A DNA stretch of 64,000 nucleotides. Origin: Bacilli bacterium. GTDB lineage: Bacteria > Bacillota_I > Bacilli_A > RF39 > UBA660. Each line of letters starts with the position of its first letter. Position 1 is the stretch's first letter. Location of the stretch: positions 98,581 through 162,580 of the forward strand of contig JAFUTX010000031.1 of assembly GCA_017484065.1 (NCBI GenBank). Reading direction: 5' to 3'. The position numbers and the translations under genes are program-made. The notes under the pieces were generated by a model, which was not told the DNA's origin, did no database searches, and saw only the letters and a list, made by a program, of their open reading frames with translations. Shown here one piece after another: positions 9,134-64,000 of the stretch.

Positions 9134-12100
9134 TTTAAAAAGATTAGGTATTGGTTTATTAAGTACAATACTTTTTGCTAGTTTTACTGGCGATGTAAAA
9201 GCTGGTACATGTGCAGATTATTCTCAAAGTTTTACAGTCACTGAAACTGGTGGAGCAAGCGGAATCACATCTCAAAATACTTATCAATCAAATTCCAATG
9301 GAAAATATCAATATTGGAACTATAGTGTTAAGTACAATGGTGGGAGTGGAAGTATTTCAGGTGTAGGATTCTGTATTGACCCTGCTAAAAGTGGTTGGAG
9401 CGGAACAGGATACTGTACAAGAGAGGTTAATCCATATGATTCAAGTAATGGAGTTAATGTTCAAAGATTTGATAGAGCTTTAACTTATTTATATGATAAA
9501 TATGCATATAACATTACTTCTAATAGAGAATTAGGAGATTTAACAGTTAAATTAATAACTTATTATTATGGTTTAGGAGAAAGCAATAATTCTTCTAATA
9601 ATACTATTAATTGGGGACCTTATAAATTAAGACATGAAACATTCTTAAAATACAGAAATAATGTTGGATATTCTGCTACTGATAAGAATGCACCTTTGTA
9701 TGATACTGCTAATAGCAATTATACAAAAGCATTATCTTATGCTAAAGAATCTGTAGAATATGCAAATAATGATGCAAATTGGACTACTATATCAAGTGAA
9801 AATATTGCATATATAAAAGATAAAGGTATAACAGAAAAAAATGCTGCAAATGCAAGTCAAAAAAGTAGTGAAGACTTATACTGGGCATTTACTGACGCTA
9901 GTGGTAAAGAAATTAATGCAACAAAAGCTGGAAATGTGTATGATTTAGGTGGATATACTGGAGAGTTTACTGCAACTGCTTATTTAAGAATACCATTTGT
10001 TGAAAAGCTAGCTTCAAATTATGAAACTGCATTAACAGCAGCAAAAAATATGTTTAATTTTAAATGTGATAATTCAACATGTCAATTAAGTAATATTACA
10101 AGTGTTGGAAATAAAAAATATATACTTGTAGGTATTTCTGTTAAAGGTAATACATCAACTTATAATGGTGGTATTGGTTCATTTAATGATACTAACAACT
10201 CTGCTTCTATACAATCTAAAGGTAATATTGTAATATTAAATTCAAAAAATGTTGATACTGGAAATCAAGGTACAGGAATGCAACGTTATGTATTCTTCTT
10301 AAACAATGAAATTAAAAAGAATGCTGATGGTAATAAAATTGCTGATATAATATTACCAAAATTACAAAGTGGTTGTAGAAAAGATGAATCTACTGGATTA
10401 TGCTATGGTCCAGATGGAAAAACTATAAGTTGTAGTGAATATGAAAAATATTGTCCATCAACTTGCTATATAAAAGATGGTAAATATTATGTATCAAATG
10501 GTAAAGAAGTTACGGAAAGTGAATATTTAAAACAATGTCCTATGACTTGTAAAGTCGAAACTGACGTAACTACAGGTAGAAAAATATATCGTGGTCAAGA
10601 TGGTAAAATAGTTGATGAAGCTACTTATAATACTCAATGTAAAAATGATAATGGACCTCAATGTGAAGTAAAAAATGGTAAATATTACATTGATGGTAAA
10701 TCAGTTAGCAAGAAAAAATACGAAGATGAATGTCCTTGTAGTTCATACATAAGAGCAGTAGATGCTTGTTATGAACCTGGTGATGCAGATAGTAAGAATT
10801 ATGACACTATCGCTGCTAAAATTTATGGACCTAGAAATGTAAAACAATGTTTCTTCCCAGATGGTGTAGAATTAAGTGATGATTCTAATAAAAAGGATGA
10901 AGCAAAAAATACATATAAACTATCAAATACTGATGAAGCAGTAGGAGTATTAGAAAATAAATATTGTGCTGTTTACTGTAAAGAAGATTATGTATTTGAA
11001 TATCCAAATGTTAAATATGGTAACCAAGGTGAATATTTCAAATTAAAATTAAATATTACTGGCGAGAAAACATGCTACGAAAAAGTAGATGTTGATAAAT
11101 TTAATAGTGATGTTGCAACACAACAACAAAAAGTTGTAGATGCTTATAATAAGTATTCTGCATTCAAGAAAATTAGTGATGCTTATAGATCATCTAGCAA
11201 AAATAGTTGTGGAGGAGCTTCATTTACTACATATTTTGATACTTATAACGTTAGTGGTAATAGAACTAGTAATACTGCTACAGTTAAAGTAGGTAAAGAT
11301 GAAAGTGAATTATTTGGTTGTGTAAGCGTTGCTGATTATCCAGATAGTTATCAATTTGCTGATTCAAACTCATTAGATAGTAAATTAAAAGCTACTAAAG
11401 AAGAATTTGACACAGCTAAAAAAGAATTAGATAAGATGTTAGAAGACATTGAAGACTGTATTCCAGAATCTGCTAAATCAGGTGGATGGGATGATGGTAT
11501 CAATGATAAATATACTACTTGGTATGATCCTGAAGTAAGTTATACTTACGATACTGAATACAAAAATCAAAAGGATATTACTATAGCTAAAGATAAAAAC
11601 TTCTCTGAGAATATCGATGATGATCAAGAAGTATGGTCATGTAATGGCGAAAGTAATAATTCATTAACAAGTTGTAATGGTACAAAATCTGATAAATTTA
11701 CATTTGATAGAAATCGTACATTTATAAACTGTACTGATAACGGTTGTTCAACTACTAGAAAAGATGTCCCAACAACTAAATACTATAAAGTAATTAGTTC
11801 AGTAGATGCTGATTATACAAGTAAAACACTATATAAATCTAGATATCCTGATGGTAAAACAACAAATACTGATATTAAAAATGATTATGAAATTAAAGAT
11901 AATTATAAAAACTTAGTTAATGGTGTTCCAATTCATATTGAAGAAACTGATGGATTACATAAATATTCAATAAACATTGACAACTTAGGACGTTATTACG
12001 ATAAAGATAAAGGTGATTTAGGACGTTTAATTGGTGGAAGTAAGAGTGTTTATGATAAATTTGATTTAGATAGTGAATACGTATGTAGTTACGATGTTAA

Positions 12101-12992
12101 TGATTGTGAAGAATACATTAAGGATCCAAATACTGGTGAATATTGTTGTATAACTGAAGCTATAAAAGGTGCTGATGGCAAATATTACTGTAGTAATCCA
12201 CAAAAAGATACATGTAAACTTGTAGTAGATGATAGAGACAATATTTGTTGTGAAGACGAAGAAGTGCTTCAACCAGATGGTACTAAACAATGTAGTGAAT
12301 GTACTGAATATACTGATAAAAATAACAATACATGTTGTAAAGAAGATGCTAAAGAGGATGATAAAGGCGATTTAGTATGTTGCCCTGAATGTAAGGTTGT
12401 TTGTTTCTGTCCATATACTGAAAAAGATGGTAAGAAGTGTGAAAAAATCGATGATTACACATGTAAATTTAGTAAAGATGAAGACAAATGTAAAGATGGA
12501 GAATGTAAGGTTGAATGTATTGGCTCTAACTGTATTAAATTAGAAGAAGGAAATGTTAATGTAAGACAAATTTCTGAAACTAATATTAATGCTAATGAAA
12601 CATCTAAAGTAAGTAACTGGACTGAGAAGAATGAAAAAGTTGAACAAACAATTAATCAAATTCAAAGTTCAGCTAGTGAAAATAAAACTCCTGAATATAA
12701 ATTTGTTTTATCTCCAAAAGCTTTAAGCTCTATTAGAGAATCAAATAAATCTTCTTGGAATGCATTATATCAATCTAAAGAAAATAATTACTTAACTTGT
12801 GATTATATTGGTACAAATACTCAAAGAATTGCATGTAAGAGTAATTATCTAGATTGGTTAGTTAAAGAAGTATATAATGGAAGTTGTCCAACTGATGGTA
12901 GTGGAGATTGTAAATATGATTTCAACAATACTGATAACTTCACAACTTGGACAGGTGCTTTAACTAAGGGCGTAGGTCCTGCTTGGAAATAA
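9120..12992 (+). CDS. giant (1290 aa) secreted Cys/Lys/Asn-rich protein with internal CPxxC-GKYY repeats; no LPXTG or TM anchor
   Basis: signal peptide MKRNNLKRLGIGLLSTILFASFTGDVKA; dozens of Cys in CxxC/CC pairs; uninterrupted ORF; immediately precedes Tad-like locus. Confidence 0.6.
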   Translation: MKRNNLKRLGIGLLSTILFASFTGDVKAGTCADYSQSFTVTETGGASGITSQNTYQSNSNGKYQYWNYSVKYNGGSGSISGVGFCIDPAKSGWSGTGYCTREVNPYDSSNGVNVQRFDRALTYLYDKYAYNITSNRELGDLTVKLITYYYGLGESNNSSNNTINWGPYKLRHETFLKYRNNVGYSATDKNAPLYDTANSNYTKALSYAKESVEYANNDANWTTISSENIAYIKDKGITEKNAANASQKSSEDLYWAFTDASGKEINATKAGNVYDLGGYTGEFTATAYLRIPFVEKLASNYETALTAAKNMFNFKCDNSTCQLSNITSVGNKKYILVGISVKGNTSTYNGGIGSFNDTNNSASIQSKGNIVILNSKNVDTGNQGTGMQRYVFFLNNEIKKNADGNKIADIILPKLQSGCRKDESTGLCYGPDGKTISCSEYEKYCPSTCYIKDGKYYVSNGKEVTESEYLKQCPMTCKVETDVTTGRKIYRGQDGKIVDEATYNTQCKNDNGPQCEVKNGKYYIDGKSVSKKKYEDECPCSSYIRAVDACYEPGDADSKNYDTIAAKIYGPRNVKQCFFPDGVELSDDSNKKDEAKNTYKLSNTDEAVGVLENKYCAVYCKEDYVFEYPNVKYGNQGEYFKLKLNITGEKTCYEKVDVDKFNSDVATQQQKVVDAYNKYSAFKKISDAYRSSSKNSCGGASFTTYFDTYNVSGNRTSNTATVKVGKDESELFGCVSVADYPDSYQFADSNSLDSKLKATKEEFDTAKKELDKMLEDIEDCIPESAKSGGWDDGINDKYTTWYDPEVSYTYDTEYKNQKDITIAKDKNFSENIDDDQEVWSCNGESNNSLTSCNGTKSDKFTFDRNRTFINCTDNGCSTTRKDVPTTKYYKVISSVDADYTSKTLYKSRYPDGKTTNTDIKNDYEIKDNYKNLVNGVPIHIEETDGLHKYSINIDNLGRYYDKDKGDLGRLIGGSKSVYDKFDLDSEYVCSYDVNDCEEYIKDPNTGEYCCITEAIKGADGKYYCSNPQKDTCKLVVDDRDNICCEDEEVLQPDGTKQCSECTEYTDKNNNTCCKEDAKEDDKGDLVCCPECKVVCFCPYTEKDGKKCEKIDDYTCKFSKDEDKCKDGECKVECIGSNCIKLEEGNVNVRQISETNINANETSKVSNWTEKNEKVEQTINQIQSSASENKTPEYKFVLSPKALSSIRESNKSSWNALYQSKENNYLTCDYIGTNTQRIACKSNYLDWLVKEVYNGSCPTDGSGDCKYDFNNTDNFTTWTGALTKGVGPAWK

Positions 12993-28142: not shown

Positions 28143-29006
28143 ATGATTTCATTTATTATTTTACATTATAAAAATTTAAAAGATACTATAGAATGTATTG
28201 ATTCAATAAAAAAAATAAATTATAACAAAGATAAAATATCTATTATTGTTGTTGATAATGGTACTTTAGATAATGAAGGCAAAGAACAATTATCAAATTA
28301 TACAAATGATTTGATAGCTTTAGAAGAAAATGTAGGATTTGCAAAAGCTAATAATATTGGTTGTAAATATGCTATTAATAAATATAATCCTGATTTTCTT
28401 TGTGTAATTAATAATGATACAATTATAAAACAGTCTAACTTTATAAAAATAATAAATGAAGCTTATGAAAAGTATGAATTTGATATATTAGGACCAAAGA
28501 TAATTTGTCCGGCAGGAAGTGGATCAGTTAATCCCTATAAACCTTTAAAAAATAGACAAGAAGTTATTGATAAACTTAATTATCAAAAAAGATTATTGAA
28601 AATATATCAAAATAAATTATTAAGATTAATATTAAATATTTATTTGAATATAAAGAAGAAAATAAAAAAAGTAAACATACCAGTTAATGGAGATAAAGAA
28701 GAAATTAATTGTGCATTACATGGTTGTGCAATCATATTTTCAAAAAAATATTATAAAAAGTATCAAGATGTTTTTTATAATGAAACCTTTTTATATCATG
28801 AAGAGGATTTCTTATATCATAGAATAGTTAAGGATGAGCTTAAGTCTTTATATTTACCAAAATTAGAAATAGAACATAAAGAAGGGGCAAGTCTTGATTT
28901 AACTTTTAATGGTGATAAATATAGTAAGTTGATTTTTAGAACAAAAGAAATAATAATTTCATTAGAAAAATTACTAGAATTATATAACAATGGAGGAGAA
29001 AAATGA
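28143..29006 (+). CDS. family 2 glycosyltransferase
   Basis: IIVVDNGT, DxD-like motifs. Confidence 0.7.
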   Translation: MISFIILHYKNLKDTIECIDSIKKINYNKDKISIIVVDNGTLDNEGKEQLSNYTNDLIALEENVGFAKANNIGCKYAINKYNPDFLCVINNDTIIKQSNFIKIINEAYEKYEFDILGPKIICPAGSGSVNPYKPLKNRQEVIDKLNYQKRLLKIYQNKLLRLILNIYLNIKKKIKKVNIPVNGDKEEINCALHGCAIIFSKKYYKKYQDVFYNETFLYHEEDFLYHRIVKDELKSLYLPKLEIEHKEGASLDLTFNGDKYSKLIFRTKEIIISLEKLLELYNNGGEK

Positions 29007-30958
29007 AGAAAGAAAGTAAAAAAGAATTATCAATTATAATACCTTGTTATAATTCGGAAAAGTATATTGTAAAATGTTTAAATTCTCTAAAAAAACAGTT
29101 ACAAAACATCAATCATGAGATTATTATAGTTGATGATTGTTCTCAAGATAATACTGTGAATGTTATAAAAGAATATATAAATAATAATATTCTAAATATC
29201 ATATTTCTACAAAATGAAAATAATAAAGGAGCTGGATATTCAAGAAATAAAGCTATTAAAATTGCCAAGTTTGATTATATATCTTTTATTGATTCAGATG
29301 ATTATTTAGATGATAATTATTATGAAACATTATTAAATATATTATATACTAATAATTTAGATGTTGTTGTTTGCGACATTAATTGTGTTTATGAAGATCA
29401 AACTCCATCAGTTATTGGTGAAGGATGCTGTGGAAAAGTTTCTAATATTAATATTATAAATACAGGTTTTGCTGCATCGCCTTGTAATAAAATTATTAGA
29501 AAAAATTTGTTAGAAAAATATCCTTTTGCTGAAGGTATTATGAATGAAGATATAGCATCTATTATTGCAATTATAGCAAATTGTGAAAGGATAGGTTATA
29601 CTAATAAAACGAAATATAATTATGTACAACATAGCAGTTCCGTTCAAAACTCAGGTTTATCTGACAAAAGGTTTGATATTTTTAAATCTATTGAGTTATT
29701 AGAAAAAAGAATTAGGGATAATGAAAACCATGATAAAATAATGAAAATTATATGTTATCAACAATTGTTTTTATTCTTTATTTATGTAATTCCAAGAGAA
29801 AAGAAATTATTAAAAAGAACTAAATTTTTAAGAAAGTTTAATAGAATGTCTAAAAAGTATAACTTAAAACAGAATAATCTGTGCTTTGAAAACTTGGAGA
29901 GAAGAGGCAAAAAAGCTTCATTCTATTATAAATTACTATTTTATTTGAATTATTATGGTTTTAGTTTTCTTACTAGTTTAATTATATCGGCATATAATAG
30001 TTATCATAAATTTAAATATAGTAGTTTTATTGTTAATAAAAAATCTGTTATAAAGAAGAACATTGATATAAAGGATTTGATTAATGTTGCTAAAAAGCAA
30101 AGTAAAATGCATGATAACAAAATTAAGCTAACGGCTATTATACCTAATTATAATTATGAAAAATTTATGTATCAAAGAGTATATAGTATTTTGAATCAAG
30201 ATTATAAAATTGATGAATTAATAATACTTGATGATTGTTCTAAAGATAATTCGAGAGAATTAATAGATTGTATTGTAGATAATTTGAAAGAATATATAAA
30301 TATAAAAAAGATATATAATGAAAAGAATAGTGGTAGCCCTTTCAAACAATGGAAAAAAGGTTTTGATAATGCTTCTGGTGATTATGTATGGATTGCAGAA
30401 GCAGATGACTATTGTGAAAATAATATGGTTTCTTGTTTGATGAATACAATAAAAAGAAATAATGATATAGTTTTAAGTTATGTAGATACTGCCTTTGTTG
30501 ATGAATTTGGAGTGGTTAGAGTAAAATCAATTAAGCCAGAAATAGATATTCAAAAGACAAATCATTGGAATAAAGATTTTATTAATGATGGTGTCGATGA
30601 AATTAAGAATTATTGTTATCTGAATTGTACAATAGCCAATGTGTCTAGTGTTATTTTTAAAAATGGTGATTATGATCAATATTTCAAAATTTCAAGTGAA
30701 TTTAAGCAAGCTGGCGATTGGTTATTTTATGTTAATGTAATAAAAAACGGGAATATATCTTTTATAAATAAACCATTAAATTATTATAGAGTGCATGGAA
30801 ATAATGTTACAAGTACAACAAAAAAAGAAATGCATTTAGAAGAAATAAAGAAAATACATAAAATTATAAATGACGAATTTAATTTAAATGATACATGCCA
30901 TGATAATATGAAAAAAAGAATTGAATTTTTGAAAAAAGTATGGGATTTAAATAAGTAA
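29003..30958 (+). CDS. tandem two-domain family 2 glycosyltransferase
   Basis: two GT2 modules (LSIIIPCYN..IIVDDCS and LTAIIPNYN..LIILDDCS); 651 aa. Confidence 0.75.
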   Translation: MKKESKKELSIIIPCYNSEKYIVKCLNSLKKQLQNINHEIIIVDDCSQDNTVNVIKEYINNNILNIIFLQNENNKGAGYSRNKAIKIAKFDYISFIDSDDYLDDNYYETLLNILYTNNLDVVVCDINCVYEDQTPSVIGEGCCGKVSNINIINTGFAASPCNKIIRKNLLEKYPFAEGIMNEDIASIIAIIANCERIGYTNKTKYNYVQHSSSVQNSGLSDKRFDIFKSIELLEKRIRDNENHDKIMKIICYQQLFLFFIYVIPREKKLLKRTKFLRKFNRMSKKYNLKQNNLCFENLERRGKKASFYYKLLFYLNYYGFSFLTSLIISAYNSYHKFKYSSFIVNKKSVIKKNIDIKDLINVAKKQSKMHDNKIKLTAIIPNYNYEKFMYQRVYSILNQDYKIDELIILDDCSKDNSRELIDCIVDNLKEYINIKKIYNEKNSGSPFKQWKKGFDNASGDYVWIAEADDYCENNMVSCLMNTIKRNNDIVLSYVDTAFVDEFGVVRVKSIKPEIDIQKTNHWNKDFINDGVDEIKNYCYLNCTIANVSSVIFKNGDYDQYFKISSEFKQAGDWLFYVNVIKNGNISFINKPLNYYRVHGNNVTSTTKKEMHLEEIKKIHKIINDEFNLNDTCHDNMKKRIEFLKKVWDLNK

Positions 30959-31005
30959 TAATGTATAATATTTTTATATTACATGAAATTTAGGGAGGTA
31001 GTACA

Positions 31006-32700
31006 ATGAATATAGATATTGTGTTTGTAACTTATAATTCTGAAAAATGGATAGATGGGTGCATAAATAGTATATTAAAAAACAAATATGATTTAAGCAA
31101 AATTTCATTAATTTTTTACGATAACAATTCAAAAGATAACACTTTAAAAAAGTTAGAAGAAATAAAGAGTAAAAACAAAAAAATATTTAAAGACTTTATT
31201 GTTGTTAAATCTAATAAAAATAAGGGATTTGGGTATGGTAATAATATTGGTGCAAGATATGGCAATTCACCCTATATTTTCTTTTTAAATGTTGATACAG
31301 AAATTAATGAAGACACTTTTTCTAAATTAGAAAATGCCATAAAAAATTCTGATGAAAAATTTGCAATGTGGGAATTGGCACAAAGGCCATATGAACATCC
31401 TAAATTTTATAATCCAATTACTGGTGAAACATCGTGGGCTAGCGGAGCTTGTATGATAGTTAAAAGAAATGTATATGAAAAGCTTGGCGGATTTGATACC
31501 AAAATATTTATGTATTGTGAAGATGTAGAAATAAGTTGGAATTTTAGAAAAAATGGCTATGCCATAAAGTATTTATTTGATATTCCAATTATCCATTATT
31601 CTTATGAAAAACCTAACGAATTTAAATATACACAATTTGTTTATGGTTTTATTAGCAATTGGTATATAAGAGCAAAGTATGGACAATTTAAAAATTTTAT
31701 GCGAGGTACACAATATATGTTTCAAACTGCATTTAAAGGAACTAGTATACCAAAAAGTTTAGATAAAAATACTATTAAAAAAATAAAAAGTTCTTTACGA
31801 TATGAAATTTTTAAACATTTCTTTAGAAATCTATTTATTAACATATTTACTGAGAAAATGTGTTTTGAACCAAGATTTATTTTTGGATTAGATTATGAAA
31901 TATCTAATGAGAATCCATTTTATATTCAACCTGATATAAAATCTAATCCTCTAGTAAGTATAATTGTACGTACCTGTGATCGAAAAGAAGCTTTAAGAGA
32001 AAATTTAATTTCTTTACGCAATCAAACATATAAAAATATTGAAATTATAGTAATAGAAGACGGGGAAAATATCTCAGAACAGATGGTAAAAAGAGAATTT
32101 TCTGATTTAAATATATTGTATGAAGCAACAGGAAAAAATGTGGGACGTTCAAAAGCTGCGAATATTGCTATGTCAAAAGCAACAGGAAAATATTTAAATT
32201 TTTTAGATGATGACGATGTTTTTTTTCCAAATCATGTAGAAACATTAGTAAAAGTTATTGAAAATAACAATTATGATATTGTTTATGATGGTGCCTTTGA
32301 AACTAAAATCAATGTTATTAGTAAAAAACCGTATAAATATGAAGTCAAAGCAAAAGGATTATGTGAAAGTAAAAAATATAGTAAAAAGAGACTATATAGA
32401 GTTAATTTATTTCCAATTCAAACAGTTATGTTTAAAAGAGATTTATTTATTGAATGTGGTGGATTTGATGAAAACATAGATGCATTAGAGGATTGGGATT
32501 TTTGGGTAAGGTTATCTTTAAAGCACGAATTCCATCAAGTTTTAGCTACTACGAGTATTTTTAGAACACCTTATGATAAAACAATTGAAAAAGAAAGAGA
32601 TAAATTTTTGTTAAGCACTTTAAATTATTTGAATGATAAGTTTAAAACATATAAACCAGAATTATCTGTTTCTGATTTTTATATAGATGATAAATATTAA
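31006..32700 (+). CDS. tandem two-domain family 2 glycosyltransferase
   Basis: two GT2 modules (DIVFVTYNS.. and VSIIVRTCDR..IIVIEDG); 564 aa. Confidence 0.75.
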   Translation: MNIDIVFVTYNSEKWIDGCINSILKNKYDLSKISLIFYDNNSKDNTLKKLEEIKSKNKKIFKDFIVVKSNKNKGFGYGNNIGARYGNSPYIFFLNVDTEINEDTFSKLENAIKNSDEKFAMWELAQRPYEHPKFYNPITGETSWASGACMIVKRNVYEKLGGFDTKIFMYCEDVEISWNFRKNGYAIKYLFDIPIIHYSYEKPNEFKYTQFVYGFISNWYIRAKYGQFKNFMRGTQYMFQTAFKGTSIPKSLDKNTIKKIKSSLRYEIFKHFFRNLFINIFTEKMCFEPRFIFGLDYEISNENPFYIQPDIKSNPLVSIIVRTCDRKEALRENLISLRNQTYKNIEIIVIEDGENISEQMVKREFSDLNILYEATGKNVGRSKAANIAMSKATGKYLNFLDDDDVFFPNHVETLVKVIENNNYDIVYDGAFETKINVISKKPYKYEVKAKGLCESKKYSKKRLYRVNLFPIQTVMFKRDLFIECGGFDENIDALEDWDFWVRLSLKHEFHQVLATTSIFRTPYDKTIEKERDKFLLSTLNYLNDKFKTYKPELSVSDFYIDDKY

Positions 32701-32718
32701 GAAAGGATTGTTAGCAAA

Positions 32719-34584
32719 ATGACTTATTTGATTCCAATTTTATATTTTCTATTTTTTACTATATCTTTAGTAGTTATAACTAAGAAGAGCTTTGGTAAAT
32801 GTTTGCCTCTTTCAGTTTTTATTAGCTCATTTATTATGTTTTTTAGTGTAATACTATTTAAAACTTTTAATATAGGCTTTTGGATAAATGTTCTATTAGC
32901 ATTGTCATTTATAATTATAATTCCTTTTTATATATGGAAAAAAACTATTAAGTTAGAAGAAATAAAAAATCTTGTTTTTACAAAGGGATTTTACGCTTAT
33001 ATTATTTGTTCAATAGCTGTATTTGTATATGACTATAATAGAGGATTTACTGGTTGGGATGAATTTTCTCATTGGGGTGTAATGATAAAAGAAATGTTAA
33101 GGCTTGATTCTCTTTATTCAGTTAAATCTTCAACATTATTAGTTCATAAGGATTATCCACCGATTGTTCAAATTTATGAATTGCTATTTGTAAAACTTTC
33201 AGGAGGATTTAGTGAAGAAAGATTAATTAGTTCTATTCATTTGTTGGAAATGATGCTTTTTATACCAGCAATTTGTGAAATAAGGCTGAACAAGAGTAAA
33301 ATAAGTGAATATTTTTCTGGAATTGCTTTATTTTTTATAGTCTTGTTTTTAATTTTGTTTCTTGATTGCCATTCTGTTATGAATTGCATATATACTGATT
33401 ATGTTATGGCAATTTTAGTTGGATATATTATGTTTTCAATTATATCAGAAAAGGACAATTTTAAATTATTTCAAATAGTAAATTTAACCTTAGCATTTTC
33501 CTTCTTATTACTAACTAAACAAATGGGATTACCTCTATTTGCAATGTGTATTTTTTTAATTATATTAGATATGATTTTGAAAAAACAAATAAAATTGAAA
33601 AATGTAGTTAAACTAGCAGTTATCATTATTATTCCATTCTTATTCTGGAAAGGCTGGGATATTTATGTAAACAAATTAGATTTAGTTAGACAATTTAAAT
33701 TTTCAGACATAAATCTATCTAATTTATATAATATTATTCTTGGAAGTGGAGGAGAAGAATGGCAGCATACAACTGTTATGAATTATTTAAAGGGGATAAG
33801 TAATATACCTAATACAACTTCTTATATTCAATTAAACTATTATCAATTAGTAGCGTTTGGATTAGCTATGCTACTAGTATTATATAAATTTTTTAATAAA
33901 TATTTTTATAAAAAACAAGTTCAATCAATATTTATTACATTATTAATTGGAGCATTAGGATATGCGTTTACGATGCTTGTTTTATATGTATTTTCTTTTG
34001 GAGCAGGTGAAGGACCTACATTAGCTTCTTTTAATAGATATATGCCTACATACGTTATGATTATATTTTCCATGTTAATTATGTTATTTTTACATTTTTC
34101 TAATTTATCTAAAAAGTATAATAATATATACTTTTTAGCAATATTAATGTTGATTATACAATCGCCAAATGTATTAGATAGAATTACTTTCCCAATTATA
34201 GATAATACTAATAGTATATATAAACTTAATGCGGAATGTATAGAAAATGATATTAAAGATGATTCTAAAGTATATATTATAGCGCAAGATAGTGCGGCTG
34301 AATATCAATATTTTATAAAGTATTATTTAGATGATAATATTGTTAATACTACTTTTTATAATTTGGAAAATGATAACTCAATTGATATTATAGATTATTT
34401 CTACAGTCAAGTTTATCCTTTAATCAAAAATTATGATTATCTATATTTAGCAAAAATAAATGATGACTTTAAGAATAATTATAGTTTTTTATTTGATAAC
34501 GAAGTTATCGAACATCAATTATATAAGATTATAGTAAATAAAGGTAAAATAAAATTCATTTTGGAAGAGTGGTGTGAGCTATAA
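32719..34584 (+). CDS. large polytopic membrane protein (candidate GT-C glycosyltransferase/polymerase)
   Basis: 621 aa, >12 TM, large extracytoplasmic C-terminal domain. Confidence 0.4.
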   Translation: MTYLIPILYFLFFTISLVVITKKSFGKCLPLSVFISSFIMFFSVILFKTFNIGFWINVLLALSFIIIIPFYIWKKTIKLEEIKNLVFTKGFYAYIICSIAVFVYDYNRGFTGWDEFSHWGVMIKEMLRLDSLYSVKSSTLLVHKDYPPIVQIYELLFVKLSGGFSEERLISSIHLLEMMLFIPAICEIRLNKSKISEYFSGIALFFIVLFLILFLDCHSVMNCIYTDYVMAILVGYIMFSIISEKDNFKLFQIVNLTLAFSFLLLTKQMGLPLFAMCIFLIILDMILKKQIKLKNVVKLAVIIIIPFLFWKGWDIYVNKLDLVRQFKFSDINLSNLYNIILGSGGEEWQHTTVMNYLKGISNIPNTTSYIQLNYYQLVAFGLAMLLVLYKFFNKYFYKKQVQSIFITLLIGALGYAFTMLVLYVFSFGAGEGPTLASFNRYMPTYVMIIFSMLIMLFLHFSNLSKKYNNIYFLAILMLIIQSPNVLDRITFPIIDNTNSIYKLNAECIENDIKDDSKVYIIAQDSAAEYQYFIKYYLDDNIVNTTFYNLENDNSIDIIDYFYSQVYPLIKNYDYLYLAKINDDFKNNYSFLFDNEVIEHQLYKIIVNKGKIKFILEEWCEL

Positions 34585-36263
34585 TGAATTTAAAATGTTT
34601 TAATAAAATAAGTAATAAAAAATTGTTAATTACTTTTTTTATCAGCATCTTTATTTTTGGATTGCTCTTTTTACCAAAAATAAGTCCAAATTTTGATGAA
34701 AATATAGAACAAAATATATTAAGAAGTAATATTTTGCAATATTCAAAAATATTAAAATTAAATAGTTTGACAGAATATTATGAGAATATGGGAATAGTCC
34801 CCATTTCCCAAAGTAGTGAAAAAGATCATGGAATAGCCTCTTATTATTTAGCTTCACCAATATTATTATTATATAACGTTTCAGCTAATTATGTATCTGT
34901 TCTTTGGCATATTTATACATATTCTATATTTTTCTTAAGTGTTATATATATATTTAAATTGATTATGTATTTATATAAAAAACGGTCAGTTGCTTTTATT
35001 ACTACTATGATGTATTTCTTTTCGCCGAGAATATTGATTGATTCATTACACAATAATAAAGATATTATATTTATGTCATTGCTTATAATAATGCTATATT
35101 ATGGATTAAGATTTACTAATGAACGTAAATATAAAGATTCTATTAAATTTGCAATAGTAAGTGCATTTGTGTGCAACATTAAAGTATTAGGACTTTATTT
35201 TTTAGGTGTTGTAGGATTAGCTTATATATATAAAATGATTGTTAATAAAGAATTTAATCGGAAAAATTTTTGTTGTGGATTGGTCGCTGCTATTATATCA
35301 TTAGTGTTATATTTTTTGCTAACGCCAGCAATATATGGTTCGGGTAGTTTTGATTTAGTTAATTTTATTACTTACTGTTTGAGTAATTCTATTAATTTTA
35401 GAGGAACCCCTAATGTTTTATTTGAAGGTAATATATATAATAAATCTATTAATCCATTACCTTGGTATTATGTTCCTAAGATGATATCTGTAACATTACC
35501 TTTGTTTTTAATAGTAATGTTCTTAATATCTTTTATGTTAATTATATACAATAATTTTGTTTATTTAAAAAAAATTATTACTTTTAAGAATAAAAATAAA
35601 AAAGTAAAATATAATGAAAATTTGTTGAATCTAAATGTAGTATTATTAATATTTATAGTTCCATTGGCAATAGCAATCTTTACAAGGCCAAATTTATATA
35701 ATGGGTGGAGACATTTCTATTTCTTGTATGGTTTAATACTAATAATAACATCCTTTGGTATAAATCATATATATGTTAAATATTTAAATAAAAAAATGAT
35801 ATATTATATATTTACTATTTCATTAATTATATCATTAACTTATAATAGCTATTGTTTATTGAAATATTCTGTAGCTAATACAGCTTACTTTAATATATTA
35901 GTAAAAAAGAGTAATTTAGAAAATTACTATGAATTAGATTATTATGGAGTTACAACAGGTGAAGCTTTGGTAGAGTTTTTAAATACTAATCCTAAAACAG
36001 GTCCGGATGGAAAGGTTAATTTGTATGGATTTGGTTTTAATAGTAGAGTTATAGGAGATTTTTTTAGAACAGCTAATGGACATTTAAGAAAACAAATAAA
36101 TTATTTAAATAACGAACAATATGATGAATATGTTGATAAAAAATATCCAATATATATAGTTAGTAATAGTGTATATCAGACAAAAGAGTATGAGAATTAT
36201 CCTATTGTATTTAATTATAAAATATTTGATAATCACATAATTGATATTTATGAAAAAAAATAG
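34584..36263 (+). CDS. GT-C fold membrane glycosyltransferase (PMT/ArnT-like, Und-P-sugar dependent)
   Basis: 559 aa; DE motif (NFDENIEQ) in first extracytoplasmic loop; polytopic. Confidence 0.5.
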   Translation: MNLKCFNKISNKKLLITFFISIFIFGLLFLPKISPNFDENIEQNILRSNILQYSKILKLNSLTEYYENMGIVPISQSSEKDHGIASYYLASPILLLYNVSANYVSVLWHIYTYSIFFLSVIYIFKLIMYLYKKRSVAFITTMMYFFSPRILIDSLHNNKDIIFMSLLIIMLYYGLRFTNERKYKDSIKFAIVSAFVCNIKVLGLYFLGVVGLAYIYKMIVNKEFNRKNFCCGLVAAIISLVLYFLLTPAIYGSGSFDLVNFITYCLSNSINFRGTPNVLFEGNIYNKSINPLPWYYVPKMISVTLPLFLIVMFLISFMLIIYNNFVYLKKIITFKNKNKKVKYNENLLNLNVVLLIFIVPLAIAIFTRPNLYNGWRHFYFLYGLILIITSFGINHIYVKYLNKKMIYYIFTISLIISLTYNSYCLLKYSVANTAYFNILVKKSNLENYYELDYYGVTTGEALVEFLNTNPKTGPDGKVNLYGFGFNSRVIGDFFRTANGHLRKQINYLNNEQYDEYVDKKYPIYIVSNSVYQTKEYENYPIVFNYKIFDNHIIDIYEKK

Positions 36264-36283
36264 ATTTAAAGAGGAAGTATTGT

Positions 36284-37249
36284 ATGAAAAAAAATGATGT
36301 TTTATATGTTGTAGTGCCTTGCTACAATGAAGAAGAGGTATTAGAAGAAACTAACAAGAGATTAGTTGAAAAACTAAAAGATTTAATTAATAAAAGTAGT
36401 ATTTCAAAGAATAGTCGTATTATGTATGTAAATGATGGCTCAAAAGATAAAACTTGGGAATTGATTGAAAAACTACATAAAAGCAATGAACTAGTTTGTG
36501 GATTAAAACTATCTAGAAATCGTGGACACCAAAATGCATTATTTGCAGGTTTGATGACTGCTAAAGATAAAGCAGATATGATTATTTCAATGGATGCTGA
36601 TTTACAAGATGATATAAACGCGGTAGATGAAATGATTGAAAAGTACTATAATGGTTGTGAAGTTGTATATGGTGTTAGAAGTTCTAGAAAAAAAGATACA
36701 TTTTTTAAAAAATTTACTGCAGAAGGCTTTTATAAGATTATGAAATTTATGGGAGTTGATATTGTATTCAATCATGCAGATTACAGATTGACATCTAAAA
36801 GAGTTCTAAGCGAACTATCTAATTATAAAGAAGTTAATTTATTTTTAAGAGGTTTATTTCCAGTTATTGGTTTTAAATCAGATGTAGTATATTATGAAAG
36901 GGCTGAAAGGTTTGCAGGTGAATCTAAATATCCATTAAAGAAGATGGTGAGTTTTGCTTGGGAAGGAATAACATCATTTACTGTAAAGCCTTTAAAAATG
37001 ATTATGAATTTAGGCTTAATAATAGCGTTATTTAGTTTTATATTTTTGATTTATGTAATAATAGGTTATTTTACAGGAAATAGTGTTTCTGGTTGGACTA
37101 CTATTATTGTATTACTATGTTTATTTAGCGGTATTCAAATATTTTGTATTGGGATTATTGGTGAATATTTAGGAAAGGTATATATTGAAACAAAAGAAAG
37201 ACCTAGATATATAATTGCTCAAGCGTTAATTCATGAGGGAAAGGAATAA
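36284..37249 (+). CDS. gtrB: undecaprenyl-phosphate sugar synthase (GtrB/CsbB/ArnC-like GT2 with C-terminal TMs)
   Basis: YVVVPCYNEEE, DGSKD, DADLQDD motifs; two C-terminal TM. Confidence 0.8.
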   Translation: MKKNDVLYVVVPCYNEEEVLEETNKRLVEKLKDLINKSSISKNSRIMYVNDGSKDKTWELIEKLHKSNELVCGLKLSRNRGHQNALFAGLMTAKDKADMIISMDADLQDDINAVDEMIEKYYNGCEVVYGVRSSRKKDTFFKKFTAEGFYKIMKFMGVDIVFNHADYRLTSKRVLSELSNYKEVNLFLRGLFPVIGFKSDVVYYERAERFAGESKYPLKKMVSFAWEGITSFTVKPLKMIMNLGLIIALFSFIFLIYVIIGYFTGNSVSGWTTIIVLLCLFSGIQIFCIGIIGEYLGKVYIETKERPRYIIAQALIHEGKE

Positions 37250-37490
37250 GAAAAAAACACCTTTTATAGTAACATATACCAAAATTTTTGTATTACTATT
37301 TTTGTAACATAATTAATAAGAATAATTATGATAATATGGTGAACTATAAAAAGTATAGTAAAAAAACATTATAATATTTATGCAGAGTAAAATAGTAGTA
37401 ATTTTTGCTCATCACAACCTTATGAAGTGCATTATGAATATTGGTTACAGCAATATTTTGATATACCAGATACTATAGAAATGAAATGGA

Positions 37491-38687
37491 GTGAATGTAA
37501 TGAATAAATACAAAGGAATGATAAAACAGTTTATAAGATTTGGGATAGTAGGTTGTATTAATACTTTTAGTTCTTGGTTTTTTTATTATCCTTTAATATT
37601 TATTAATGTTAATTATAAAATAGCAACGACAATTGCTTATATTTTAAGTTCTATTATTGGTTATATTTTAAATAATGGTTGGGTATTTAAAAAAACAATT
37701 TATGATTCGAACTCTGTACTTAAGTATTATGTTGTATATGGTAGTTCATATATTTTAAATATTGGATGTATGTATTTATGGGTAGAAGTATTACAATTAT
37801 CAGCTTATATTGCACCAATATTAACGTTATTCATAACCGTACCATATAATTTTATATTTAGTAAACTATGGGTCTTTACTAAAAAGAAAAATATATATTT
37901 GAATAATCCTAAAAAATATCATACATTTGCAATATGCGCTTATAAAGAGTCAAAATATTTAGAAGAATGTATTAAATCAATAAAAAAACAATCAATAAAG
38001 ACTAATATTATTATTACATCATCTACCAAAAATAAGCATATAGAAAATTTAGCTAAAAAATATAATATTCAAACATATTTTAGAAATGGCAAAAGTGATA
38101 TTCAAGACGATTGGAATTTTGCAGTAAAAAAATGCAAAACTGAACTAGTAACTGTAGCTCATCAAGATGATATATATAATGAATATTATGTAGAAAATAT
38201 TTTGTCAAATTATACTGGAAAAGAGATAATGTTATCAACAAATAATTATTATTTAGTAAAAAATAAAAATTTATATAATAAAAATTTAAAATTAAAGGGA
38301 ATATTAAAAATACCATTAACTATCCCAGGTATATCCAATATAAGATGGATAAGAAAAATGACATTATCACTTGGAAATACAATTCAATGTCCTTCAGTTA
38401 CATACAATAAAAATATAATTGGTGATGATATTTTTACTTCGAATTTGAAATTTGGATTAGATTGGGATACTTTTTTTAAGTTATATAAAATGAAAGGTAA
38501 AATAAGATATATACCTAGAAAACTACTATCATTTAGAATAAGTAATGAATCTACGACAAAGCAATGTATGGATAATTCTTTAAGAATTAAAGAAGATAAT
38601 ATAATGTTTAAAAAATTTTGGCCAAGTTGGTTAGTAAAGATAATTATGAAATACTATGTAAAATGTTATGATGTATATAATGAGTAA
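37491..38687 (+). CDS. GtrA-like flippase domain fused to a GT2 domain
   Basis: N-terminal 4-TM GtrA pattern (FIRFGIVGCINT...), C-terminal GT2 (AICAYKES..). Confidence 0.6.
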   Translation: MNVMNKYKGMIKQFIRFGIVGCINTFSSWFFYYPLIFINVNYKIATTIAYILSSIIGYILNNGWVFKKTIYDSNSVLKYYVVYGSSYILNIGCMYLWVEVLQLSAYIAPILTLFITVPYNFIFSKLWVFTKKKNIYLNNPKKYHTFAICAYKESKYLEECIKSIKKQSIKTNIIITSSTKNKHIENLAKKYNIQTYFRNGKSDIQDDWNFAVKKCKTELVTVAHQDDIYNEYYVENILSNYTGKEIMLSTNNYYLVKNKNLYNKNLKLKGILKIPLTIPGISNIRWIRKMTLSLGNTIQCPSVTYNKNIIGDDIFTSNLKFGLDWDTFFKLYKMKGKIRYIPRKLLSFRISNESTTKQCMDNSLRIKEDNIMFKKFWPSWLVKIIMKYYVKCYDVYNE

Positions 38688-60443: not shown

Positions 60444-61076
60444 TTAAAATTTACGATATAAGCCAATAGCTTTACCAAGTATTGTACATGTATCTAGTAT
60501 TATAGGAGCCATAGTATCATTTTCTGGTTGTAATCTAATGTGTCCATCTTCTTTATAAAATGTTTTTAGTGTAACTTCATTTTCAGTAGTCATTGCAACA
60601 ACCATATCACCATTACGAGCTACTCTAGATCTTTCTACTATTACATAATCTCCATCCAATATACCAGCATTAATCATACTCGTACCACTAACTTCTAATG
60701 TAAAAACTTCTTTTTTCTTAGGAACTAATGCAGCTGGTAGGTCAAAAAATTCATTTGGCCTTTCAATAGCTTCAATAGGTAATCCTGCAGTAACTTTACC
60801 AAGTAAAGGAACTTTAACAACGTTTTCATCTTTTTCTAAATATTCATTGTCAACAAGTATTTCAATTGTTCTAAATTTTGAATTAGCTTTTTTGATATAT
60901 CCAGCATCTTCTAATTTTTTTAAATGTGTATGTACTGTAGCAGGACTAGACAATCCTAATGCTGCGCATATTTCTCTGATAGCAGGAGGGTAGCCATGAG
61001 TAGCACTATATTTTTTTACGTAGTCTAATACCTCAGTTTGTTTAGCAGTTAGTTCTTTTTTTACAAAATTAACCAT
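60444..61076 (-). CDS. lexA: LexA repressor (ATG 61076 with AGGTGA RBS; ORF-track 61157 is an upstream extension)
   Basis: wHTH + S24 peptidase with Ala-Gly cleavage site context and Ser/Lys dyad (GTSM..K). Confidence 0.9.
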   Translation of the reverse strand: MVNFVKKELTAKQTEVLDYVKKYSATHGYPPAIREICAALGLSSPATVHTHLKKLEDAGYIKKANSKFRTIEILVDNEYLEKDENVVKVPLLGKVTAGLPIEAIERPNEFFDLPAALVPKKKEVFTLEVSGTSMINAGILDGDYVIVERSRVARNGDMVVAMTTENEVTLKTFYKEDGHIRLQPENDTMAPIILDTCTILGKAIGLYRKF

Positions 61077-61121
61077 TATTTCATCACCTATATGTATATT
61101 AACACAAAAAAATGTAAAGGT

Positions 61122-61135
61122 CAAACATTTGTTTG
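61122..61135. promoter_or_regulatory. Cheo-type LexA box 1 (CAAACATTTGTTTG)
   Basis: palindrome AAAC-N4-GTTT read directly between divergent lexA and small ORF. Confidence 0.5.
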
Positions 61136-61144
61136 AAAATGTTA

Positions 61145-61176
61145 TTGACACGAACAAATGTATTATGATAATATCA
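61145..61176 (+). promoter_or_regulatory. promoter TTGACA-17-ATAAT region overlapping LexA box 2 (CGAACAAATGTATT, 61151-61164)
   Basis: TTGACA 61145-61150; GAAC-N4-GTAT half-degenerate box inside spacer. Confidence 0.45.
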
Positions 61177-61197
61177 ATTTGAAAGAAGGTAAGTTTT

Positions 61198-61338
61198 ATG
61201 GAAAAAGTAATTAAAAAATATTTTGGAGTAGTATTATTCTACTTAACAATTATCGGCGGTATACTTCTACTAAATGAAAGATTTAGTTTAATTAATAGCC
61301 AAAATGTTAATAATGAAATCTCCATAATGCAGAAATAA
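61198..61338 (+). CDS. 46-aa single-TM protein divergent from lexA (candidate SOS-induced division inhibitor, SosA/YneA-like)
   Basis: RBS GAAGG 8 nt upstream; MEKVIKKYFGVVLFYLTIIGGILLLNERFSLINSQNVNNEISIMQK; not in ORF track. Confidence 0.35.
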   Translation: MEKVIKKYFGVVLFYLTIIGGILLLNERFSLINSQNVNNEISIMQK

Positions 61339-61418: not shown

Positions 61419-61835
61419 ATGAGAAATTTTTATATGTTTAATATTTCAGATGAAATAGCTATTTTAACAAAAAATAATCCTTATAATTTGTTTAAAGTAT
61501 TTGAGAATATCTATTATTTAGATAAAGATGAATATAATACTGCTATGGATGTATTAGAACAAATTACTTTACCTATGGAAAAAGAGGTAATCAAAGATAA
61601 TATATTAGCTAAATATAAAGATAACGACTTTTATAGTGTCGTTAATAATAAACATACTTTTAATAACTTGTATTTAGCTGAAGTTACTAACCTTTATGTT
61701 AAATCTACTTATCTTTTATTAAAATCTAGTGCTATAAGACCAGTATTCTTTAAAGAATTACAAGATATTAGTAATCTATTTATTTGTGATTTTGAAAACA
61801 AAGATTACTTTTGGTTAAAAGAACTGGCTATATAA
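61419..61835 (+). CDS. hypothetical protein (138 aa)
   Basis: ORF only. Confidence 0.3.
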   Translation: MRNFYMFNISDEIAILTKNNPYNLFKVFENIYYLDKDEYNTAMDVLEQITLPMEKEVIKDNILAKYKDNDFYSVVNNKHTFNNLYLAEVTNLYVKSTYLLLKSSAIRPVFFKELQDISNLFICDFENKDYFWLKELAI

Positions 61836-61836
61836 T

Positions 61837-62757
61837 TTAAACTAATTCATATTCTCTAGATATAATTCTTTCATCGCTAGAGTATTTAACTATGTACTTA
61901 TTATCTTTTCTTACTAGGATAATACCAATAGTTTTATCATGATTAATCTTTTTAACATTAGTATCTATATAATTCATATAAACTTGTATTTGTCCTAAAT
62001 GTTCTTTTTTTAATTCAGTTACTTTTAGTTCAATAACAACGTAACAATTATATTCAATATTAAATAGCAGTAGATCGATGTAATTAAAAGTATTACCTAT
62101 CTTTATTTTATATTCGTTACTAACATAGGTATAACCAGATCCAAGCTGAGATAAGAAATTATCTAAATCATCAAGTATTGTTTCTTTTAATACATATTCC
62201 TTAATATGTTCTTTATCTTTAATATTACTACTTTTTATAACTATGGGATTAGGTACTAAATCAGTAATAGTAGTATCTTCTTTATTAATTAATTTTAATT
62301 TGGTTTCATCATCTAATCTTTCATATTCTTTTAATTTAATTCTTTCGTGTAGTTGTCTTTTGGAAATATTTTTTATTGATATTTGTTTTATATAGTAATT
62401 TATCTTATTAATATCTTTTAATGGTAGTAAAAGTAAGCAATGACTCCATGTTAAATGTGGCGCCAGCGGTGCCACTTTCTCATTAGAAAAAACTAAATAA
62501 AACTTTCTTATTTTATACAAAGTACTTTTATCATATTTTCTACCAACCTCAGTAATTAGTTTTTCAGCATATTTTCCAATAATATTATTGCCATAATGTT
62601 TACCAGCTTCTGCTAACATTTTACCTACGTCATAATAAGTTTCTAATCTATGTCTTTCTTTAGACATATCTTTTATAGCACTATAAGCTATATCTTCAAG
62701 TAATCTTTCTTTTATTTCACTATAATAATTATCTTTTAATTTGCTTGTTTTATTCAT
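61837..62757 (-). CDS. DUF1016/YhcG-like PD-(D/E)XK nuclease family protein, tandem copy A
   Basis: 306 aa; C-terminal E..D..ELK nuclease core (IDLLLFN..VVIELK). Confidence 0.6.
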   Translation of the reverse strand: MNKTSKLKDNYYSEIKERLLEDIAYSAIKDMSKERHRLETYYDVGKMLAEAGKHYGNNIIGKYAEKLITEVGRKYDKSTLYKIRKFYLVFSNEKVAPLAPHLTWSHCLLLLPLKDINKINYYIKQISIKNISKRQLHERIKLKEYERLDDETKLKLINKEDTTITDLVPNPIVIKSSNIKDKEHIKEYVLKETILDDLDNFLSQLGSGYTYVSNEYKIKIGNTFNYIDLLLFNIEYNCYVVIELKVTELKKEHLGQIQVYMNYIDTNVKKINHDKTIGIILVRKDNKYIVKYSSDERIISREYELV

Positions 62758-62808: not shown

Positions 62809-63726
62809 TTAAATTAATTCATATTCACGAGATATAATTCTTTCATCGCTAGAGTATTTAACTATGTACTTATTATCTTTTCTAACAAGGATTATACCTA
62901 TAGTTTTATTATGATTAATCTTTTTAACTTTAGTATCTATATAATTCATATAGACTTGTATTTGTCCTAAATGTTCTTTCTTTAATTCACTAACCTTAAG
63001 TTCAATAACTACATAACAATCGTATTCAATATTAAATAGCAGTAAATCTATGTAATTAAAAGTATTACCTAGCTTTATTTTATATTCACTTTTTATAAAG
63101 GTGTATCCCGCACCTAATTGTTCTAAAAAATCTTCAATATTATCTACTATTAATTTTTGTAATGCCTTTTCCTTTATTGTTGCCAATGAATTAGTATTTT
63201 TTATAATAATAGGATTGGGTACTAAATCAGTAATAGTAGTATCTTCTTTATTAATTAACTTTAATTTAGTATCATCATCTAACCTTTCATATTCTTTTAG
63301 TTTGATTCTATCTCTTAACTGTCTTACTGATAAATTTTGCTTATTAACTAAATTAATATAATAATTAATAGCTGATATATCTTTTAGAATTAATAATTCT
63401 GAATAGTGGCTCCAAGATAATCTGGTCGACAATGTCGACCATTTTTGATGAGTACTAAATAATAAATAAAACTGCCGATATCTTCTTAATGTACGCTCAT
63501 TATATTTTTTATCAATCTCATTCATAAGTTTGATAGAATAGTTTTTAATAATACCTTCTCCGTAACGTTTGCCAGCATTAGCTAACATCTGACCTACATT
63601 ATAATAAGTTTCTAAATCGCTTTTGTTTTTGCTGTAATCTTTAACTTTATTAGTTATTTCATTATTTAATAATTGATTTTTTATTTCATTATAATAATCA
63701 TCTTTTAAGTTTTTTGCTTTATTCAT
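62809..63726 (-). CDS. DUF1016/YhcG-like nuclease family protein, tandem copy B
   Basis: 305 aa; C-terminal 120 aa nearly identical to copy A. Confidence 0.6.
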   Translation of the reverse strand: MNKAKNLKDDYYNEIKNQLLNNEITNKVKDYSKNKSDLETYYNVGQMLANAGKRYGEGIIKNYSIKLMNEIDKKYNERTLRRYRQFYLLFSTHQKWSTLSTRLSWSHYSELLILKDISAINYYINLVNKQNLSVRQLRDRIKLKEYERLDDDTKLKLINKEDTTITDLVPNPIIIKNTNSLATIKEKALQKLIVDNIEDFLEQLGAGYTFIKSEYKIKLGNTFNYIDLLLFNIEYDCYVVIELKVSELKKEHLGQIQVYMNYIDTKVKKINHNKTIGIILVRKDNKYIVKYSSDERIISREYELI

Positions 63727-63777: not shown

Positions 63778-64000
63778 TTAACTTAATTCATATTCTCTAG
63801 ATATAATACGTTCATTGCTAGAGTATTTAACTATGTACTTATTATCTTTTCTTACTAGGATTATACCAATAGTTTTATTATGATTAATCTTTTTAACATT
63901 ATTATCTATATAATTCATATAGACTTGTATTTGCCCTAAATGTTCTTTTTTTAATTCAGTTACTTTTAGTTCAATAACAACGTAACAATTATATTCAATA
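63778..64000 (-). CDS. DUF1016/YhcG-like nuclease family protein, tandem copy C (3-prime part only; runs off window)
   Basis: nucleotide near-identity to the 3-prime ends of copies A and B. Confidence 0.5.
   Translation of the reverse strand, partial: IEYNCYVVIELKVTELKKEHLGQIQVYMNYIDNNVKKINHNKTIGIILVRKDNKYIVKYSSNERIISREYELS

Follow-up and report, generated by a model that had tools for sequence, protein, structure and literature searches.

A small membrane-protein gene divergent from lexA in uncultured gut Bacilli, a candidate SOS-induced division inhibitor

We consider a small gene that lies head to head with lexA in the window, by which we mean the whole 64,000-nucleotide stretch of Bacilli DNA analysed here. 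The two genes are proposed to form a divergent SOS unit, and on the grounds of position and architecture we hold it to be moderately probable that the small gene encodes an SOS-induced bitopic inhibitor of cell division. Control of the small gene by LexA, as read from the operator sites, is strongly supported. The gene represents a new, unannotated sequence family, which by analogy is best filed among the SOS-controlled small membrane division inhibitors. An earlier note on this DNA had placed a 46-aa ORF on the plus strand, divergent from lexA on the minus strand, and this ORF is present where the note put it. The features of the locus are as follows.

60444 to 61076, minus strand: lexA, 210 aa, with the Pfam domains LexA_DNA_bind and Peptidase_S24.
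61085 to 61089, minus strand: ribosome-binding site of lexA, AGGTG, from a reading of the sequence; relatives have GGAGG-type sites at the same place.
61096 to 61124, minus strand: predicted lexA promoter from a promoter scan, with -35 TTGACC (61119 to 61124), a 17-nt spacer and an extended -10 TGTTAATAT (61096 to 61104; TG-n-TAATAT).
61122 to 61135, no strand: predicted LexA box 1, CAAACATTTGTTTG, of the AAAC-N4-GTTT type, perfectly palindromic (5+5) and overlapping the lexA -35.
61145 to 61174, plus strand: predicted small-gene promoter from a promoter scan (11 of 12 matches), with -35 TTGACA (61145 to 61150), a 16-nt spacer and a -10 read as GATAAT (61167 to 61172) or TG-n-TAATAT (61166 to 61174).
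61151 to 61164, no strand: predicted LexA box 2, CGAACAAATGTATT, of the form GAAC-N4-GTAT, filling the spacer between the -35 and -10 of the small-gene promoter.
61185 to 61189, plus strand: ribosome-binding site of the small gene, GAAGG, 8 nt before the ATG, from a reading of the sequence.
61198 to 61338, plus strand: the small gene, 46 aa, with an ATG start, divergent from lexA, taken from the ORF list.
61419 to 61835, plus strand: SirA-like gene, 138 aa, 80 nt past the small gene, matching Pfam SirA over its full length (E 3.3e-9, above the curated cut-off).

The small gene and lexA share an intergenic region of 121 bp (61077 to 61197) that contains both LexA-box-like sites, in a window with a G+C content of about 25%. 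Solved LexA structures can be aligned with the whole of the lexA product. In this alignment the Ala-Gly cleavage site and the catalytic Ser and Lys motifs are kept (VTAGLP, VSGTSM and VTLKTF, for which the E. coli LexA counterparts are VAAGEP, VSGMSM and VTVKRL), so that the LexA of the window looks cleavable. Gut metagenome contigs encode an identical LexA among the same neighbours, and on them the 46-aa ORF has already been called by gene callers.

The small-gene product (MEKVIKKYFGVVLFYLTIIGGILLLNERFSLINSQNVNNEISIMQK) has a simple layout: a basic N-terminus (MEKVIKKY), a TM helix at about F9 to L25, a juxtamembrane stretch (LNERFSLIN) and a polar tail of about 21 residues. Its hydrophobic stretch is about 17 residues long, and the best 17-residue Kyte-Doolittle mean is 2.55. 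The AlphaFold2 model, made with the family alignment, is one continuous helix with pLDDT of 92 to 96 at residues 11 to 30 and a tail of low confidence. The GAAGG site, the single TM helix and the short polar tail described in the earlier note are all recovered here.

To place the gene among its relatives, we use a LexA scan with one genome per species, which gives 80 loci whose LexA is 70 to 82% identical. All are MAGs, and their labels are uncultured Bacilli, Tenericutes, Erysipelotrichaceae or Mycoplasma, with one Candidatus Ventrenecus. A small ORF with a GGAGG-type ribosome-binding site stands at the same place in 73 of the 80 species, on the strand opposite to lexA and with its start 105 to 260 nt from the lexA start. 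Its length is 42 to 57 aa, apart from two cases of 30 to 35 aa, and the sites kept before it in relatives read AGAAAGAAGG or TAAGGAG. The family consensus is MxKxLKKYGGxILLYxVIxxGIxxLNxRxxxLN. Residues M1 and Y15 show little or no variation, G10 is present in at least 90% of the sequences (alignment A2), and the post-helix motif LNxRFxxLN is conserved among the small proteins.

The pattern of substitutions was examined in 17 pairs of equal length with 75 to 99% nucleotide identity. Over these pairs, the differences at codon positions 1, 2 and 3 number 97, 69 and 195; codons with a single change are synonymous in 123 cases versus non-synonymous in 76; and the ORF frame has no stops, versus a mean of 5 to 7 in the other two frames. 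Judged by these substitutions, the small ORF is a protein-coding gene under purifying selection. Loss of the reading frame among related genomes, named in advance as an observation that would count against the proposal, is not what we find: the frame is kept in the 73 species and the substitutions are of the coding type.

The small gene is missing in seven of the 80 species (L037, L041, L056, L062, L066, L067 and L075). Sister species have an M16 peptidase gene after the small gene, and in L037 and L062 lexA stands directly opposite this peptidase gene. The short versions of 30 to 35 aa end just past the TM helix and are found in L035 and L069 and as proteins P0065 (8 contigs) and P0067 (3 contigs); they are either decaying copies or evidence of a dispensable tail.

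The family is not easily seen from a single sequence. A word-indexed search with the 46-aa protein finds only the protein itself, and its relatives are reached only through an alignment built from the genomic neighbours of lexA. With this locus-derived alignment, a profile search returns 73 database clusters, none of them functionally named, and an exhaustive HMMER search of 1.84 billion representatives returns 211 matches at E<=1e-3 and 17 at E<=1e-10, the 211 being representatives of clusters at 50% identity. The representatives are nearly all 43 to 60 aa long, and the names carried by members of the clusters are, among those seen, always "hypothetical protein". No family covering the small protein is found in Pfam, NCBIfam or PADLOC. 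The PADLOC defence models give nothing meaningful, Rfam gives nothing at the locus and only tRNAs elsewhere in the window, and a search of the literature found no description of the family.

Two leads from these searches were rejected. The longer family members (60 to 83 aa) might have represented a larger domain; in those inspected, the extra length comes from a TGA read as Trp or from an upstream start call, and they contain no additional domain. The public calls of P0015, P0070, P0080, P0133, P0147 and P0153 overrun the true end by 10 to 30 residues, with Trp at the TGA stop, and it appears that genetic code 4 has been applied to MAGs labelled Tenericutes or Mycoplasma, inflating the protein lengths in the databases. 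The other lead, a match of the window protein to Pfam DUF6814, has an E-value of 0.0064, which is below the cut-off, and is shared by only 5 of 72 members; we regard it as noise from the TM helix.

The genes of three distant members of the family, picked by sequence alone (P0066, P0058 and P0071), are all divergent from lexA across a gap of about 120 bp. The other neighbours differ around these three, and the lexA/small-gene pair is therefore seen as a conserved unit. The likeness in position to yneA of Bacillus and sosA of Staphylococcus, which the earlier note had drawn, reaches to distant members of the family. On the downstream side it is extended by the sirA-like gene of the window and the transketolase gene of other species.

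The operator sites are considered next. The two boxes had been proposed to be of a GAAC/AAAC-N4-GTTT type, which holds for box 1 (AAAC-N4-GTTT) but not for the right half of box 2, where the sequence is GAAC-N4-GTAT. In 28% of the related species, box 1 itself has this weak GTAT on its right side. Box 1 has two mismatches to the 10 specified bases of the Cheo-type CGAAC-N4-GTTCG, and the two boxes deviate from the strict Cheo-type consensus and fit the conserved motif of their own clade. In the window, GAAC-N4-GTTY has no match, RAAC-N4-GTTY is found 2 times versus 3.6 expected, and CGAAC-N4-GTTCG with two mismatches is found 3 times versus 2.7 expected. Such bare patterns show no enrichment over the 64 kb and are uninformative by themselves, so the argument for the boxes has to come from the comparison between species.

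In this comparison, 81 of 81 loci contain the box 1 motif GTCAAAC-A-W-W-T-G-T-[T/A]-[T/C], which mostly lies 42 to 50 nt from the lexA start. Its GTCAAAC part is invariant in all 81 and contains the reverse complement of the lexA -35 core, so that part of the invariance of box 1 is due to the overlap with the lexA -35. On the side of the small gene, the arrangement of TTGACA followed by a box is kept in relatives. A position matrix was built from the orthologous sites of other species and scored over the 64-kb window, where boxes 1 and 2 have the top two scores (19.6 and 15.2) and the next best site scores 9.8. No further LexA box above 9.8 is found in the 64 kb, and hence no other SOS genes are visible in the window. 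Shuffling the window by mononucleotides gives maximum scores with a mean of 13.6 and a highest value of 18.2, which puts box 2 alone (15.2) within the range of chance. Taken by their pairing, their position and their conservation across species, the boxes are non-random.

The link between box 2 and the small gene is drawn from a second matrix, which was trained on box 1 only, with random stretches of the same loci as the control. In 74 of 74 ORF-bearing loci this matrix picks out another site, located between box 1 and the small ORF, with a median score of 13.8 versus a control median of -5.9, and each of the 74 loci scores above the 95th percentile of the control. Box 2 of the window scores 14.7 with the same matrix, and the spacing between box 1 and box 2 is 28 to 29 bp in 40 of the 74 loci. 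In the 7 loci without the small ORF, box 1 is kept and no second site is found with the box-1-only matrix (best score 5.1). The conservation of the boxes in relatives, which the earlier proposal had left as a point to check, is borne out in that a second LexA-type box is found in all 74 loci that have the ORF and in none of the 7 loci that lack it. This joint presence of box 2 and the gene is the strongest evidence for LexA control of the small gene.

Variants of the boxes are found in other lineages. One clade (L020, L026, L028, L029, L033, L035, L039, L040 and others) has CGAAC-N4-GTAT followed 2 to 3 nt later by CGATATAATGTTCG. In loci of this L020/L026 type, CGATATAATGTTCG spans the -10 (GATATAAT), and two overlapping half-perfect boxes cover the promoter. 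The S. aureus primer Up-sosA_rev (supplement of PMC6851548) has the reverse complement CAAACAAATGTTCTAGGAGTGAAA. The 14-mer CAAACAAATGTTCT, which this primer places just upstream of the ribosome-binding site of S. aureus sosA, is the same as box 1 of L005 and L018, and from this match AAAC-N4-GTTC variants would seem to function as LexA operators in Bacilli. The clade-specific LexA motif (CAAAC-AWWT-GTTY / CGAAC-N4-RTWY) can be used for predicting the SOS regulon in these MAGs.

From these elements we assemble a model of the divergent unit. LexA would repress its own promoter through box 1, which lies over the lexA -35, and would repress the small-gene promoter through box 2 in the spacer, where the bound repressor would exclude RNA polymerase. 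Upon DNA damage, the self-cleavage of LexA stimulated by RecA would free both promoters. Given a promoter close to consensus, a leader of about 20 nt (measured from the predicted promoter) and a good ribosome-binding site, the product of the small gene would be expected to appear quickly. According to the positive-inside rule, the small protein would insert in the N-in/C-out orientation, with the basic N-terminus in the cytoplasm and about 21 residues, from LNxRFxxLN onward, outside. It would then delay septation until repair is complete, as YneA, SosA and SidA do. The most likely route would be docking of the TM helix and the juxtamembrane stretch onto a septal peptidoglycan synthase of the FtsW/PBP2B type, and the spacing of G10, Y15 and G21 is compatible with a helix-packing face.

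The division-inhibitor part of this model draws on the characterised Gram-positive inhibitors. YneA, SosA, ChiZ and DivS are unrelated in sequence, and each is a single-TM protein encoded beside lexA (PMC6851548), as is predicted for the small protein. SosA is alike in plan. Its gene, like the small gene, is divergent from lexA, with LexA-box control inferred for the small gene from operator sites, and an operator of the same type, CAAACAAATGTTCT, lies near it. Both proteins have a small single-TM architecture, predicted to be N-in/C-out, without a LysM domain. The essential residues of SosA are just outside its TM helix (PMC6851548), and the conserved residues of the small proteins are likewise within and just after the helix, with a conserved stretch directly following it where the essential part of SosA lies; this pattern speaks for a division inhibitor. 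The difference is in size, the small protein having 46 aa with about 21 residues outside and SosA having 77 aa with about 47 outside. SosA is inactive after removal of 30 to 40 C-terminal residues (PMC6851548).

YneA offers a likeness of another kind. The small gene occupies the same slot, from lexA to tkt/sirA given the gene order of B. subtilis, with operators in the shared region and a single TM helix at the N-terminus of the product. The TM helix of YneA docks on TM7 of FtsW, and other SOS inhibitors are predicted to do likewise (PMC13396833), which also speaks for the division-inhibitor reading. Inhibition by YneA requires its LysM domain (PMC13396833), whereas the small protein has no LysM and less than half the length of YneA; a LysM match is found neither in the window protein nor in any of 72 members of the family. 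Homology to YneA is not detected, as judged from the profile search of the 1.84 billion representatives, where the matches are almost only of 43 to 60 aa. With the SosA model (NCBIfam NF041581), no member reaches the cut-off; 5 of 72 give sub-threshold matches (best E 0.034) and the window protein gives none. Going by the LysM search, the SosA cut-off and the search for homology, the small protein is not a member of the YneA or the SosA family.

More distant systems can be compared by description. The SidA gene is not known to lie beside lexA in the manner of the Gram-positive genes. SidA and DidA of Caulobacter crescentus are described as minimal, damage-induced single-TM inhibitors that act on late divisome proteins and not on FtsZ (PMC6851548). 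The small protein resembles them as a minimal single-TM protein and differs in that they come from another phylum. ChiZ (Mycobacterium) and DivS (Corynebacterium) are damage-induced single-TM proteins encoded beside lexA (PMC6851548); they differ from the small protein in being larger and actinobacterial, and ChiZ in having a LysM domain (PMC6851548).

Several points weigh against the division-inhibitor reading. The requirement of YneA for LysM, and of SosA for more than 37 outside residues, is set against the roughly 21 outside residues of the small protein. The gene has been lost in 7 of the 80 species and ends after the TM helix in a few others, and it has no detectable similarity to YneA, SosA or any curated family. 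The model as a whole is also weakened by the weak right half (GTAT) of box 2 and by the labels Tenericutes or Mycoplasma on some of the related MAGs. An alanine racemase gene adjoins the locus and is the sole wall-synthesis gene seen there, and the other large ORFs of the window that were examined encode envelope glycosyltransferases, the Der GTPase and unknowns.

The genes downstream of the small gene bear on what else the protein may do. Between the small gene and the SirA-like gene of the window there is no convincing intrinsic terminator. A possible promoter of the SirA-like gene itself (TCGACA...TGATATAGT) is partly conserved in L004. In Bacillus, SirA (sporulation inhibitor of replication) is a protein that binds DnaA. 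The adjacency of the small gene and a SirA-like gene is found only in the window, L004 and L031; in many species the next gene is transketolase (confirmed in L019), and elsewhere it encodes an M16 peptidase, an MGDG-synthase-like glycosyltransferase or a MiaB-like radical SAM enzyme. In about 18 species (L005 to L018, L021, L032 and L057; for example L006:3393-3722, minus strand), an unannotated gene of 90 to 110 aa follows so closely that its start falls in the interval from 8 nt before the stop of the small ORF to 14 nt beyond it. This coupled gene has no Pfam match; its three best PDB sequence matches are all MazG-type pyrophosphohydrolases (YpjD 2gta, 5ie9 and 1vmg) and are weak, with E-values of 0.03 to 0.3. 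It is probably in the same SOS operon as the small gene. In B. subtilis we take the order to be lexA, the divergent yneA-yneB-ynzC (ynzC being BSU17880), then tkt, then sirA (yneE). By analogy, the small gene would occupy the yneA slot of an old Bacilli neighbourhood made of lexA, a small TM gene, and tkt or sirA.

One alternative is a small membrane protein, likewise SOS-induced, whose role is different: it could modulate or anchor a membrane protease, a transporter or an envelope enzyme, or aid a co-transcribed downstream product. The translational coupling to the MazG/YpjD-like gene of about 100 aa in some 18 species speaks for this alternative. However, the downstream gene varies by clade (sirA-like, tkt, MazG-like, M16 peptidase, glycosyltransferase or radical SAM) while the lexA/small-gene pair is constant, and a partner role with a neighbour is unlikely because of this change between clades. 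We consider this alternative rather unlikely overall.

The main rival, which we hold to be a little less likely still, is that the small gene encodes a toxin or persistence peptide like TisB or DinQ, induced in the SOS response and acting on the membrane. It would reduce the membrane potential and hold back growth as a whole instead of targeting the divisome. Such a peptide agrees with the small size, the lone TM helix and the inferred LexA control, and single-TM peptides of this sort are made under LexA control in E. coli. TisB and DinQ, small single-TM peptides under LexA control like the small protein, are paired with antisense RNA antitoxins and made from mRNAs with long processed leaders, and their genes are not known to lie beside lexA; the mRNAs of type I toxins typically have a long structured 5' UTR. 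At the small gene, which adjoins lexA, neither an antisense antitoxin nor a long leader is found: Rfam gives no antisense or sRNA partner, and the leader is only about 20 nt. In the species with the coupled gene, the start of the next gene at -8 to +14 nt from the stop leaves no room for an antitoxin locus. The conserved polar motif outside and the invariant Tyr of the helix suggest a specific partner, against a general action on the membrane. The fixed place beside lexA, moreover, is the hallmark of the division inhibitors (PMC6851548).

The weakest alternative, that of a chance ORF in an AT-rich promoter region whose boxes serve only the autoregulation of lexA, could appeal to a short ORF with no database name, missed by ORF tracks, and to a bare box pattern that is not enriched in the window, but it is very improbable in view of a frame, length, ribosome-binding site and residues conserved in 73 of 80 species, the third-position bias and synonymous excess, the 211 family representatives, and a box 2 that is found only where the ORF is present.

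The remainder of the window adds some observations of its own. Beyond the SirA-like gene, two full-length tandem paralogues of the YhcG/DUF1016 PDDEXK nuclease (61837 to 62757 and 62809 to 63726, minus strand; 306 and 305 aa) have near-identical C-terminal halves, and they are followed by the C-terminal end of a third copy (63778 to 63918, minus strand); L001 has a further partial copy beyond. In the segment 60001 to 64000, the GC and AT skews flip sign (GC skew of -0.08 versus +0.12 to +0.32 elsewhere), and this flip coincides with the switch to minus-strand genes, namely lexA and the nuclease paralogues. Three ORFs on the plus strand (9120 to 12992, 32719 to 34584 and 34584 to 36263; 1290, 621 and 559 aa) have no Pfam match at E<=1e-5, and those of 621 and 559 aa sit within a cluster of glycosyltransferase genes (29003 to 38687).

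Returning to the reading of the small protein as an SOS-induced division inhibitor, small membrane proteins encoded beside lexA are thought to pause division during DNA repair in most Gram-positives. Such inhibitors go unannotated because few have been characterised and they have no sequence in common. A gene of this kind beside lexA would be expected by specialists in Bacilli; here it is unannotated, widespread and unusually small. The new family belongs to abundant, uncultured, low-GC gut Bacilli, and its clear operator architecture, together with the natural variants by loss and truncation, makes the hypothesis easy to test.

At 46 residues, the protein is smaller than SosA and YneA, and if it does block division, what inhibition requires would shrink to a TM helix with a short juxtamembrane motif. 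A more daring form of the model, to which we give only a slim chance, is that of a minimal Gram-positive DNA-damage checkpoint, in which a TM helix and about 20 outside residues would act on FtsW/PBP2B through Y15 and LNxRFxxLN, with no peptidoglycan-binding domain, and in which some lineages would have a wider SOS operon (with a MazG/YpjD-like gene, or the SirA-like gene in the window). Were the wider operon real and to include the SirA-like inhibitor of DnaA, DNA damage would arrest division and new initiation of replication together. If the division block is true, the small protein would be useful for understanding, and perhaps for mimicking, the inhibition of FtsW-type wall synthases.
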